Part shown: positions 55,445 to 60,192 of the stretch, in pieces
How positions within the stretch are numbered: the first letter of the stretch is position 1
How the letters are laid out: each line of letters begins with the position of its first letter
Virus genome (UHGV): UHGV-1514873
Length of the DNA: 60,731 nt
Reading direction: 5' to 3' (one strand)
Source of the DNA: a virus
Notes under the pieces: generated by a model
Told to the model about the DNA's origin: nothing
Databases searched by the model: none
What the model saw: the letters and a program-made list of their open reading frames with translations, nothing else
Translations under genes and position numbers: made by a program

Positions 55445-55475
55445 AAAAGGCGCAATTAATTGCGCCTTTTTATCA
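55445..55475. terminator. bidirectional hairpin at 3' end of acyltransferase gene
   Basis: aaaaaggcgcaattaattgcgccttttt perfect palindrome flanked by A and T runs. Confidence 0.6.
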
Positions 55476-56522
55476 TTTTATCAAAAATGGCCCACCGACT
55501 GTCCTCGATAGCCAATGGCCAATTTTATCTGATACATATACACAAATACAGGTATATATGATTGCGCAGATAGGATTTGGAATGGTCACGCTGAAGCCTA
55601 TGATTGCTAAAGCCATAGGGATAAATAATTTGGTGATATACTCCATTCCACATATGTTAAGAGTATTTCTTCCAGCTCTTACAATAAAGTCATTCCCACA
55701 AATTATTTTTGCTATAAAAATATTAAATATTATCAAACCTACCGTGGTGATAATAGTATTAATAGCTTGAATATAACTACTTGATATTATGTCTGCATTG
55801 AATATTGAGATAATCTTAAAAAGCAAAGGTTTCTGGTTAAGGAGTTGATACGCACTCATTATCGCGGTAATTGAGAAGACAATGAAACCAAATTTAGATT
55901 TTCCAAAAAACCTGTCACGTGTTAATTCTAAAAACATACATCTACCGAGAGGCAATAACCACCAGTATGCCATAGCGGAGTCTATGTTCCAAAACCATTG
56001 AGGATCTAGTAATGGGTTATGATTGAGCACTGTTTGTGACAACATGAACGATAATAGTGATATGATTAAAATCACTATATTGTTCTTGACTATTTCTTTA
56101 AAGATTGCATCAATTGCTATTATAACAAAAAGGCAGTTTATAAACCATATTGTTCCTACAAATTGGTTGTTTCTAACACCATATATTATATCATAAATGT
56201 GGCTGTATATATAATCAATCGTCTCACCTGAGTTAATTGTGTTTATTATTAATATAGTAAATGCAAAAGTGAAATATGGAATCATTAATCTGTAAAACTT
56301 TGACTTGATATAATCGAAAATAGATAAGTCATTTTTTTTGATAGTAAAAAAACCAGCAGCGAAAAAGAATAGTGGGACGTGATAACTAAAAACAAAAGGA
56401 TACAATTTGCCAGCCCCCAAACCAAGGTGACCTAAATATATAGCAAAAATACCGAGAAATTTTAAAGCATCAACCCAATCATGCCTTGTTTTTCTGTTGC
56501 TGTCGATTTTGTTATTATACAT
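55473..56522 (-). CDS. acyltransferase-3 family membrane protein (putative O-antigen O-acetyltransferase)
   Basis: 349 aa, ~10 hydrophobic segments, very AT-rich. Confidence 0.75.
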   Translation of the reverse strand: MYNNKIDSNRKTRHDWVDALKFLGIFAIYLGHLGLGAGKLYPFVFSYHVPLFFFAAGFFTIKKNDLSIFDYIKSKFYRLMIPYFTFAFTILIINTINSGETIDYIYSHIYDIIYGVRNNQFVGTIWFINCLFVIIAIDAIFKEIVKNNIVILIISLLSFMLSQTVLNHNPLLDPQWFWNIDSAMAYWWLLPLGRCMFLELTRDRFFGKSKFGFIVFSITAIMSAYQLLNQKPLLFKIISIFNADIISSSYIQAINTIITTVGLIIFNIFIAKIICGNDFIVRAGRNTLNICGMEYITKLFIPMALAIIGFSVTIPNPICAIIYTCICVYVSDKIGHWLSRTVGGPFLIK

Positions 56523-57245
56523 TTAAAGTAGGCTCTCCAGTTTTGTGTGATTTTCAAACACTCATTGCAAATATGAATGCCTGAAAGTTTATGATTATTA
56601 ATCAACGAGTTCAATATTAATTTATTATTTTTCAAAGTCGCACTATATAGGCATTTACTTCCGCAGTACCACCGATAGTATCGATATCAAATCAGCCTGC
56701 GGCCGCGATAACTTTCGTAACATCCTGCCAGCGGCTTTGTTGAATAAATCAGGTTCAAGACAATCGTCTCTGCATCAGGTTAGAGTCTCAGGCAATACAC
56801 ACTCTTTCTGGCATAGCTGCCACTCTCGCACCATGGCCATAGCCTTTACGATCTGCATACTCACCAGACCAGAGCCCGCTCCCTTTCGGGGAGGAATGAG
56901 GGCTCTGATATTCTTTTGCCGTAGTTCATCGTGAAACCGTCGGATGTCATTTGGCCTGAGTGACCCATGCCTCCCAAAAGCAGAGTCGCTAGTGTTATGT
57001 AATTAGGCGGTTAAACTTTTAATATTCGCGTTAAGTTTGGGTAAACGCTTGTAAATGGTATCGCTAATTCTTTAATTGACTAATATTTGAAACGGTTAGT
57101 GTGATTGTATATAAATATTTGAGTGTAAGGTATTGAAAGGGGCATTCAGCCCCTCCGTCTATTTGTGATTGCATCCATTGATGTGCGTATTATTTTGAGC
57201 TTGAAAAAGGGAGGCGCTCTTTAATAATAAATAAATCTATCAAAG

Positions 57246-58706
57246 CTAAATATTAAATGGAAGCCACCCTTTTTTCTCTGATAGTTTTATTATCACCAAA
57301 CCATTTATTTCAGTTATCGAATCTGGATTCGGCCAGGAAGGTAAACTCTTCACAATTGGATAAATCTTCTCTATTTGTTCTTTATTTGCTGGTTTGCAAT
57401 TACAGATTCCATAGTAATTCATAAATGCAACCATCCTAAAATAGTTGCCACCATCCCACCAAAAAAAAGATTTTCCAAAAGTGTCTGCGCTCATGGAGAG
57501 CATATTCCCTGAGTCGTTTGAACCATGTATATATATGTATTTTCCGTTAAGGGAAATGCCTTTTGTTTGAGATATATATGATATTTCTTTAGCTAAAGAG
57601 ATATCTTTCTGTCTTGCAAGAGTATCATTCAAAAATAGATTTTTGGATATTGAAACGCTATTAAATATAATAAATAAAAAAAACATGTAGTTTAGGTGTT
57701 TTATCGAGTGAAAATTGCTTAAGCAAGAAAACAAAATTACTGCTACTATTGGCATTAAAACAAACAGGCGAGGTGGCGCCCCTGAGCCAACAACAACGAT
57801 AAATATAACCGGAAGTATATAAATAAAAATGATTGATGAAATCAAATAAATTGATTTTGTTTTTAATTTATATATTAGGGTGAATATCAGAACTAATAAA
57901 GGAATCAGTAACCACTTGTATAAGTTTAAACCAGTAGGAGGGTTGTTATAGAAGTTATATATATTATCTATGGCTGATTTAACAAGCCATTTAATATCGC
58001 TTGCATTTTGTATGTAATTTGAGATGTACTCGTTCGATTCAAGCGAAAAATAATGCTTGATAGCTTTGGTTAATAGCAGGTAAATTAAGGTGGATAAAGC
58101 TATGAGGGATAGAGATAAACATGAACTATAAAAAGACTCACGAATATTTTTCTCTTTTCGTATTATCGAATTTACCTGCAACCCAATGACGAATGCAATA
58201 ATATATGTTACGAATGTTTGGTAGATTGCCATTGAAAGAATGGACAGTACTATACCAGAAAATATCACAATCCTATTTTTTTGCGAGTGAAAAATAATTG
58301 CTGATATCGCTGCCAGTAGAAAAGCAATTCCCACCGTATCAGCTTGGTTAAGAAACTCTAATTGATAGGATATCTGAGGAAAGGTAATAAATACTAACAT
58401 ACCTATCAATAATTCATAAGATTCTAGCTTTAGCGATCTGCAGATTATAAATGCTGAAGTGATGATAAAAAATAAAGCTACTAATGGTGTTATATAAAGT
58501 GAAAAAGGCTCAGGGAGAAAATAATGTCGCAAAAAAGTGTGAAACCACCGTCCAAGCGTGATTGTTTGATAAAAATTATTTGTAAACTCGCCATCAATAT
58601 TAAGTGTTCCATCGTACAACCACCCCCAATAACAATAAATTGATATTGCAAAACATGATATGAAGGCAAGGAGATTTGAATTTTTAAATAAATTAATTTT
58701 AATCAT
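57246..58706 (-). CDS. serotype-specific O-antigen glucosyltransferase (GtrC-type)
   Basis: 486-aa polytopic membrane protein directly downstream of gtrB. Confidence 0.75.
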
Positions 58707-59632
58707 GGGTTACCTCGATGAGATTTTTTTATGATGTATTTAGGTCTATTTTTTACTTCAATATATATTCTGCCTATATATTCTCCGAGAACACCAATCC
58801 CGATCAGTTGCACGCCACCCAAGAAAAGTATTGATACGAGCAAGGAGGGATACCCGCGTACTGGGTTACCAAATACAAGGGTGTCTATAATCATCCAAGC
58901 ACCATATAAAAATGAAATGCTTGCAACAAACAAGCCTATATAAGTCCATACGCGAAGAGGAAAGGTTGAAAAACTTGTGATACCTTCCAGTGCCAGATTC
59001 CATAATTTCCAGCCATTAAATTTTGAGATGCCAGCAACACGCTCTGCGCGTACATATTCAACGACATCCGTCTGACCACCCACCCAGCTCAGTATGCCTT
59101 TCATGAAAAGATTGCGCTCAGGCAACAGTTTAATGTTCTCCACAACCTCACGAGACATGAGTCGAAAATCTCCGACATTTTCCTCGATCTTTGGGGTGCT
59201 TATTTTGTTGTGTAATTTATAGAACCACTCAGCTGTCTTACGTTTCAGTCGTCCATCAGTTGATCGGTCTGAACGTTTAGCAAGCACCATGTCAGCACCT
59301 GCCTGCCACTTTTCAATAAGATGAGGGATAACCTCAATTGGGTCTTGCAGGTCGACATCAATAGGAATTACAGCATCGCCGCTTGCATGGTCTAACCCTG
59401 CAAATAAGGCTGGTTCTTTACCAAAGTTGCGTGTAAATGACAGCGGAACAACTAGCGGGTCTGAAACAGCCAGCGCGTTAATAATTGACTCTGTGGCATC
59501 TTTACTTCCGTCATTTATGAATACAATTTCTACTTCATATGGCTTCAACTCTTGGAATTCACGTACCGTTTTATAGAAAACAGGTATCGCTTCTTCTTCA
59601 TTGAAGACAGGAACGACAAGAGATATTTTCAT
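58703..59632 (-). CDS. gtrB: bactoprenol glucosyltransferase GtrB
   Basis: GT2 N-terminal domain ([11 protein letters not shown]...DGSKD...DVDLQDP) with C-terminal TM helices. Confidence 0.9.
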
Positions 59633-59991
59633 TTCGCATCCCTAAAGACAATGAACTTTGAATAGACGAAACCGCACACCAGACTGATGGCGGAGAAGGT
59701 GATAAGAGTGACTATTGGAGGAAGTGAGCATTTATCAGCTGCCCAACCAACAATCACACTCAATATTCCCATAAATCCCACGTATAACATGTAGCGCATC
59801 GCTGTAGTCGATGCTTTGAATGTGAATCTTGCATTCGCGAAGAAGCTAAAGCTCACAGCCACTACGAAACCTGTGAAGTTTGCCAGAGCCTGACTGGTAT
59901 GTGCGGCATAGATACATACACCAAAAACCACCCAGTGTATAAGTGTGTTCAGCACACCTATAGATGTGTACTTTACAAATAACTTTAACAT
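59629..59991 (-). CDS. gtrA: GtrA flippase
   Basis: 120-aa four-TM protein preceding gtrB. Confidence 0.85.
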
Positions 59992-60192
59992 TTATTTAAT
60001 CAATGAGCTCTGAAAGGCATGAAGTCTATCATCCAAGTCTCAATTGATCGATACTTGCTATGTCTGATGAGACAAAACTGAGACACATAAGGCCTCACAA
60101 TGGCTTGCAAGGCTTTACATGTTTTTATGTGGTGGGACGTGTGAGCGCAGTGTTGATGGGATAATACTTTGAATTACAAGCGGATTCTTATA

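Follow-up and report, generated by a model that had tools for sequence, protein, structure and literature searches.

The integrase-distal end of the prophage contained in UHGV virus genome UHGV-1514873 raises the question of what an O-antigen glucosyltransferase operon and a separate acyltransferase gene, parted by 723 bp of apparently non-coding DNA, are, how they came together and how they are expressed. An initial annotation of the whole 60,731-nucleotide stretch (here called the window) had described positions 55473-60192 as a double O-antigen modification cassette with a non-coding remnant inside it. Our comparisons indicate, and of this reading as a whole we are confident, that this is the serotype-conversion end of a 39.5-kb SfII/SfV-family prophage, inserted at a thrW-type attachment (att) site of an Escherichia coli K1 strain. 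O-antigen glucosylation and acetylation decide serotype, antibody recognition and phage susceptibility, and the gtrII/oacD pair defines the most prevalent Shigella flexneri serotype, 2a.

Four genes, all on the minus strand, make up the cassette. Three of them, gtrA (59629-59991, 120 amino acids, aa), encoding a small membrane protein proposed to be an undecaprenyl-phosphate-glucose flippase (PF04138, E 1.9e-14), gtrB (58703-59632, 309 aa), encoding a bactoprenol glucosyltransferase of glycosyltransferase family 2 (GT2; PF00535, E 7e-31), and gtrII (57246-58706, 486 aa), encoding a type-specific O-antigen glucosyltransferase (PF14264 Glucos_trans_II, E 4.5e-30), are joined by a 4-nt ATGA overlap at both junctions. 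The fourth (55473-56522, 349 aa) encodes a protein of the acyltransferase-3 (AT3) family (PF01757 Acyl_transf_3, E 1.8e-12), in which the domain covers residues 15-290 of 349 with 47.4 bits against a curated cut-off of 31; no second domain was found in it by Pfam scan, so that it is AT3-only, with no fused SGNH domain. When the window was compared by megablast and tblastn with 50,697 phage records, Shigella phage SfII gave the only full-length megablast match, 98.1% identical over 54700-60250, and under this match the SfII record (KC736978 / NC_021857) holds the acyltransferase gene SfII_25, the transposase gene SfII_26, gtrII, gtrB and gtrA, with attP and int next to them. Identical residues number 119 of 120 in GtrA, 309 of 309 in GtrB, 469 of 486 in GtrII and 343 of 349 in the acyltransferase (SfII_25). 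All four open reading frames (ORFs) are full length, and the codon differences from SfII (synonymous to non-synonymous, 14:6 in oacD, 20:17 in gtrII and 10:0 in gtrB) show more synonymous than non-synonymous changes, though synonymous sites are far fewer. As in SfII, the acyltransferase gene is flanked by the tail-fibre assembly gene on one side and by gtrII on the other and is followed by the same terminator, and the "extra acetylase" of the initial annotation is, by sequence and position, an O-antigen O-acetyltransferase gene, an allele of oacD.

The acyltransferase gene had been described as AT-rich and as possessing its own palindromic terminator, and both features are found. The GC content is 31.8% in oacD and 31-32% in gtrII, against 52.3% in the prophage body. 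The intrinsic terminator of oacD (55442-55473, minus strand) is a perfect palindrome with a 14-bp stem (ΔG -18.7 kcal/mol) flanked by A and T runs; it abuts the stop codon of the acyltransferase gene, at a place where the SfII record also annotates a terminator, and could act in both directions. A search of Rfam at E ≤ 1 gave only sub-threshold matches for this hairpin. From the tail-fibre assembly gene to the terminator extends a non-coding left flank of the oacD block (54701-55472, 772 bp, 36.7% GC), which among the phage records is matched by SfII alone, with 98.6% identity. About 90 other E. coli genomes contain sequences with 70-77% identity to a 173-nt piece of this flank (54859-55032); there they stand in unrelated settings, downstream of Rhs genes beside ISEc1 and, in P1-like plasmids, near a TnpB gene.

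Genes, order, strand, attP core, oacD hairpin and flanking non-coding DNA, including an insertion sequence (IS) relic described below, are all shared between SfII and the window, and the SfII proteins are 96.5-100% identical to those encoded here; the host of SfII is S. flexneri 2a, whereas that of this prophage is E. coli K1. SfII has been reported to carry both the gtrIIBA operon, which adds glucose to an O-unit rhamnose and gives the type II antigen, and oacD, which 6-O-acetylates N-acetylglucosamine (GlcNAc) and gives O-factor 10 (PMC8973906; PMC9558356), and in its genome paper SfII_25 (acyltransferase), SfII_26 (transposase) and SfII_27 (gtrII) are listed as genes of this phage alone (PMC3772137). 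The double cassette gtrA-gtrB-gtrII plus oacD is, then, an arrangement already known. The initial annotation was right that two modification systems stand side by side, but it missed that the whole module had been published and that the acetylase already had a name and a known product. What is added here, namely an IS903-like relic, an empty ISSfl9 site, an exchange of type-specific gtr (gtrC) modules at the relic and an 87-nt difference from the P22 switch, refines the annotation and leaves the understanding of these systems unchanged. That the module occurs nearly unchanged and uninterrupted in E. coli recalls usefully that the circulation of such determinants is not confined to Shigella.

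The comparison with known Gtr and Oac types, which had been proposed as a check, also places the cassette with respect to other serotype-converting phages. SfV, SfI, SfX and SfIV resemble it in the position beside attP and int at thrW and in the three-gene logic, and their gtrA, gtrB and attP arm are 91-98.6% identical, but their matches in the phage search are limited to these three elements. The acetyltransferase Oac (OacA) of phage Sf6 belongs to the same Pfam family and has the same single-domain membrane architecture as OacD, although its published target is O-2 of RhaI, that of OacD being O-6 of GlcNAc (PMC9558356). By tblastn, OacD showed no similarity to phage-borne acyltransferases other than SfII_25 and one weak match in a Bacillus phage.

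A perfect 48-bp direct repeat (20694-20741 and 60193-60240) delimits the prophage; its two copies, both on the plus strand, constitute the attL and attR cores and correspond to the 3' part of a thrW-type tRNA gene; ARAGORN found no whole tRNA in the window, and the att cores are partial thrW copies only. The 60193-60240 copy, identical to the SfII attP core, adjoins gtrA; for the attP arm, identity between the window and SfII is 99%. The integrase gene (20754-21917, minus strand; PF00589, E 3e-48), homologous to the int region of SfII, SfV and SfIV, adjoins attL, and the gtr end lies opposite, in the int-distal position that had been assigned to it. The remainder of the prophage is a mosaic, its late region being closer to SfV and to E. 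coli myophages. The first 20.5 kb of the window are the late end of a CUS-3-like (P22-type) prophage, and, because this prophage carries an endosialidase tailspike and neuO, the host is an E. coli K1 strain.

The gap between gtrII and oacD (56523-57245) had been seen to hold only scraps of ORFs, the longest of which encode 57 and 65 aa, and had been regarded as a remnant worth comparing with IS and transposase sequences. In a blastn search against plasmids, 56703-56948 turned out to be 75-80% identical to IS903-group elements. The IS903 terminal inverted repeat GGCTTTGTTGAATAAATC is matched at 18 of 18 positions at 56733-56750, and tblastn with the IS903 transposase returned co-linear fragments corresponding to aa 212-245 and 296-322 in two frames, aa 246-295 being lost. 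The coding part has thus decayed through a frameshift and an internal deletion of about 158 bp, though the motif DELR..I.ALIPPRKGAG is still recognisable, and at this position PGAP marks an IS5/IS1182 pseudogene in related E. coli genomes. No second IS903 terminal repeat (with up to 5 mismatches) was found in 54000-60300, and a Pfam scan of the three translated gap frames gave no match at E ≤ 10; the relic can be recognised only by DNA similarity, by its exact terminal repeat and by tblastn with the IS903 transposase. IS903 and IS903B (IS5 family) are elements of roughly 1.06 kb, whereas the window keeps only one end, a nonfunctional piece of about 216 bp (56733-56948, minus strand) with the exact 18-bp repeat and a decayed 3' part of the transposase gene. 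We identify it from these similarities as the dead 3' end of an IS903-like element, lying in the same orientation as the cassette genes. A tentative hand reading would take the relic to about 57002 (LHNTSDSAFG against IS903 LNNVTDSEAFPG), but tblastn did not return this match. Some 22 nt outside the IS903 repeat (within 56708-56732) resemble DNA beside an IS903 copy on a Klebsiella pneumoniae plasmid, a likeness unexpected if the insertions were independent.

On the gtrII side of the relic, a probable gtrII terminator hairpin (57136-57156, minus strand; GGGGC-loop-GCCCC followed by TTTC, ΔG -13.7 kcal/mol) was also found by a consensus scan, and on the other side lie about 210 bp upstream of oacD. 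The gap thus consists of the gtrII terminator region, a 216-bp IS903-like relic and the oacD upstream region, and is not a decayed cassette gene; the term "non-coding remnant" of the initial annotation fits the relic, but only about 216 of the 723 bp are IS debris, the rest being accounted for by the gtrII terminator and oacD upstream regions. Identity to SfII follows this division: it is 95.8% in the relic and 95.6% in the right part of the gap, 99.05% in the 210 bp before oacD and 97.5-99.4% in the other segments, the relic and the right part being significantly more diverged than the remainder (Fisher p = 6e-5).

A gap whose length is identical in six public contexts, and which is 99-100% conserved among them, could also be a conserved regulatory element or a gene for a small RNA or protein, such as the 65-aa ORF at 56737-56934, rather than junk. 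Yet this ORF runs antisense to the IS903 transposase relic, and the six contexts are near-clonal, the whole 6.1 kb being 99.2-100% identical, so that the high conservation of the gap reflects relatedness. Moreover, prophages with a different, DUF6056-type gtrC (see below) lose everything to the right of 56959. Divergence from SfII in the centre and right part of the gap is about three times that of the flanks, the gap of SfII has accepted a 1.3-kb insertion, and at E ≤ 1 no Rfam family was found within 56523-57245. Together these points argue against a conserved regulatory element in the gap centre and make this explanation very improbable.

The insertion in SfII is the main difference between the two cassettes. 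In a local alignment with SfII one matching segment ends at window position 56886 and the next begins at 56882, and between the two, at 56882-56886, SfII has 1,304 additional bases; these bases are ISSfl9 (IS4-like), which encodes the SfII_26 transposase and lands inside the IS903-like relic. The gap of the window is free of this element, and its target site (56880-56888) is uninterrupted. A public collection has 261 blocks indexed with exactly this GtrII protein, and the IS-free form is common there; the six contexts displayed all have the 723-bp gap and are 99.2-100% identical to the window over 54600-60731. Among 5,426 complete E. coli genomes, none has the IS-free gtrII arrangement and three have that of SfII, including ISSfl9. 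It may be that the IS-free module is the ancestral form and that E. coli lineages act as a reservoir of the S. flexneri 2a determinants, a proposal to which, taken jointly with that of an alternative acceptor discussed further on, we give a low probability.

Several observations bear on the suggestion that the cassette is composite and secondarily acquired. Among the phage records oacD and its flanks occur in SfII only, whereas in about eight of the 5,426 complete E. coli genomes the tail-fibre assembly gene, the left flank, oacD and the relic are 99.4-99.5% identical to the window up to 56959. From this breakpoint (56959/56960) similarity is lost, to return at 58728, in the 3' end of gtrB. 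In these DUF6056-type E. coli thrW prophages (for instance that of genome UID2309220013), tail genes, left flank, oacD (347 of 349 residues) and relic are 99-99.5% identical, and gtrB, gtrA, attR and a truncated island integrase gene are again common with the window (98.7%), but gtrII and the DNA downstream of it are replaced by about 284 bp of unrelated DNA, a copy of ISEc13 and a gene for a 413-aa DUF6056 protein. A global alignment of GtrII with this DUF6056 gtrC product has 115 identical positions in 561 columns. Since the oacD-relic block is shared and gtrC differs, the oacD block and the type-specific gtr gene are separable modules joined at IS debris, and a composite, secondarily acquired cassette is well supported by these comparisons, the initial suggestion having rested on the remnant and the additional acetylase gene. 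The relic marks a junction at which modules were joined and exchanged, and ISSfl9 was inserted into it later, in SfII.

In the established Gtr model GtrB, GtrA and a type-specific Gtr act in succession on undecaprenyl-phosphate-glucose. Applied to this cassette, the model would involve two separate transcription units, both on the minus strand. From the first, gtrA-gtrB-gtrII, GtrB would make undecaprenyl-phosphate-glucose in the cytoplasm, GtrA would carry it to the periplasmic face, and GtrII would move the glucose onto an O-unit rhamnose, the modification that yields the type II antigen in S. flexneri. The second would be oacD, which has an upstream region and a hairpin terminator to itself; its product, a membrane-bound AT3-only acetyltransferase, would be expected to 6-O-acetylate the O-unit GlcNAc, as in S. 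flexneri, where this gives O-factor 10.

The four genes are co-oriented, and the possibility has to be considered that gtrA-gtrB-gtrII-oacD form a single operon in which oacD is expressed by read-through, the gap being a long intercistronic spacer. Two facts weigh against the two-unit arrangement proposed above: the T-tail of the gtrII hairpin is poor, so that some read-through from gtrII into oacD is conceivable, and a strong sigma-70 consensus promoter sought ahead of oacD was not found, the best candidate matching 8 of 12 positions. The upstream region itself (56523-56732, minus strand) contains a GGAG Shine-Dalgarno sequence and weak promoter candidates, among them TTGAAC-17-TAAACT about 63 nt before the ATG. 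Against the single operon, a hairpin of -13.7 kcal/mol follows gtrII, the 210 bp upstream of oacD are the best conserved part of the gap, and the IS elements found in relatives would interrupt such a transcript. In SfII the 1.3-kb ISSfl9, with its transposase gene on the opposite strand, stands between gtrII and oacD, and S. flexneri 2a still shows OacD-dependent O-factor 10 (PMC8973906), which counts against read-through if the 2a strains of that study carry ISSfl9 in this gap; other E. coli prophages keep oacD beside a different gtrC with ISEc13 between them. Because ISSfl9 or ISEc13 parts oacD from the upstream gtr gene in these relatives, a separate oacD promoter most likely lies within 56523-56732, and we regard a four-gene operon as improbable.

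For the gtr unit, a promoter can be placed at 60016-60051 (minus strand) by homology with the gtr promoter of P22, with a predicted start near 60016. Its -35 region, TCGATC, holds the only GATC (60046-60049) between gtrA and 60400, the single site that had been noticed near 60047, and is followed by the extended -10 element TGATAGACT. An alignment of the region upstream of gtrA with those of a P22-like phage and of SfII showed homology from the att core to the gtrA start, save for a block of 87 nt that the P22-like phage has and the other two lack. This block carries three GATCs, and both the window and SfII keep only the equivalent of GATC-4 and the extended -10. The four GATCs of the P22-like sequence are spaced as GATC-1 to GATC-4 of the published P22 switch, at -110, -97, -46 and -33, GATC-4 being within the -35 region (PMC2909390). 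With the P22 and Salmonella phase-variable gtr operons the window thus shares gtrA, gtrB, the upstream sequences flanking the switch, the -35 region that includes GATC-4 and the extended -10, but the 87-nt block with three GATCs is missing, and the defining architecture of the switch is not present.

Homology with the sequences that flank the switch in the P22-type regulatory region could be taken to mean that this operon, too, is phase-variable through Dam and OxyR, the more so as the remaining GATC overlaps an 8/10 match to an OxyR half-site. However, the Dam/OxyR switch needs four GATCs, arranged as two pairs in the roughly 115 bp that precede the start (PMC2909390), and the window has one. 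Three OxyR half-sites, forming two alternative sites, characterise such operons; here there is one candidate, the 8/10 match, and by our estimate about 0.1 matches of this quality are expected by chance in the stretch. The absent block falls where the OxyR(A) and OxyR(B) half-sites of P22 lie (PMC2909390). Furthermore, a Salmonella gtr operon with only GATC-4, -35 and -10 does not phase-vary, and the same authors note that there is no evidence of phase variation for S. flexneri gtr (Davies et al., PMC3688519). Phase variation of the P22 type is therefore hardly to be expected here. As the 87-nt block with three of the four switch GATCs is absent, steady gtr expression is the best prediction, in agreement with the initial annotation, which had predicted no Dam/OxyR phase variation from the GATC count.

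Whether the cassette finds its acceptor in the host is a further question, since the host O-antigen cluster lies outside the window and the presence of the acceptor has to be deduced from relatives. The O-antigen cluster was examined in two complete E. coli genomes that carry a prophage of this family at thrW, A21 (gtrII plus ISSfl9) and UID2309220013 (DUF6056 type), and in both it belongs to the O13/O129/O135 family, that is, to the S. flexneri-type backbone. The short tail-fibre protein (53644-54294) is identical to that of SfII at 206 of 216 residues. The O13/O129/O135 clusters of the two relatives and the SfII-like tail fibre make it plausible, on this comparative evidence, that the host offers the acceptor and that the O-antigen of the lysogen is 2a-like. 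In A21 and UID2309220013 the O13/O129/O135 cluster also contains, between wzy and gnd, an extra trio of GtrA, GT2 and DUF2029 genes, the GT2 gene of which is interrupted by ISEc13 in A21 and frameshifted in UID2309220013.

Some facts count against this reading, besides the location of the O-antigen cluster. K1 strains are usually of other O types, and the host carries a K1-specific CUS-3-like prophage. Nine of the ten differences between the tail fibre and that of SfII are at residues 122-194, in the C-terminal half; this half may bind the receptor, and the differences may indicate a shifted receptor specificity. In this allele GtrII has 17 substitutions, and OacD 6, relative to the characterised proteins. 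It can also be the case that the cassette is intact but idle, the host O-antigen not being of the S. flexneri or O13/O129/O135 type, so that GtrII and OacD would have no acceptor and would be passively carried. This would fit a K1 host, shown by the CUS-3-like prophage with its endosialidase and neuO, with an O-antigen cluster outside the window and no complete E. coli genome found with the exact tandem arrangement. On the other hand, phages of this family use the O-antigen as receptor and the host range of SfII is serotype-restricted (PMC3772137), both of the related E. coli lysogens examined have an O13/O129/O135 cluster, none of the four genes is disrupted and synonymous changes are in excess, and the exact GtrII protein is retained in hundreds of assemblies. 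Passive carriage consequently seems to us rather unlikely, and a functional cassette acting on a flexneri-type acceptor is preferred. If the backbone of the K1 host were not of the flexneri type, a related Rha-Rha-Rha-GlcNAc O-unit might be what GtrII and OacD modify, a speculative proposal that shares the low probability given above to the ancestral IS-free form; were it true, there would be O-antigen subtypes beyond those considered in current E. coli serotyping and glycoconjugate vaccine design.

The module neighbours, in the adjacent prophage, a phase-variable capsule acetylase gene, neuO. In the end of the CUS-3-like prophage (16504-20537) the endosialidase tailspike is encoded at 16504-19449 and neuO at 19603-20316, the latter with nine copies of the heptanucleotide AAGACTC (19608-19670); nine being a multiple of three, this phase-variable K1 capsule O-acetyltransferase gene is in frame ("on"). 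Two unrelated prophages, CUS-3-like and then SfII-like, are thus arranged in tandem with a common 48-bp thrW-type core, a junction found in none of the 5,426 complete E. coli genomes, where CUS-3-like prophages ending at the core do occur. To the right of attR (60393-60731) there is a 112-aa ORF that contains only the Arm-DNA-binding domain of a P4-type integrase and has a stop codon at its end; in related genomes such a P4-type integrase stump is followed by a MarR regulator gene and then by the vat autotransporter toxin gene. Within the prophage, the candidate RNA IS009 of Rfam is matched below threshold (54 bits, the gathering score being 117) at 54493-54669, in the 3' end of the tail-fibre assembly gene. 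Finally, six overlapping matches to a 30-nt repeat, spaced by 15 nt except for one step of 33 nt, are found at 26923-27045 in the replication gene region and resemble the iterons of lambdoid replication origins.

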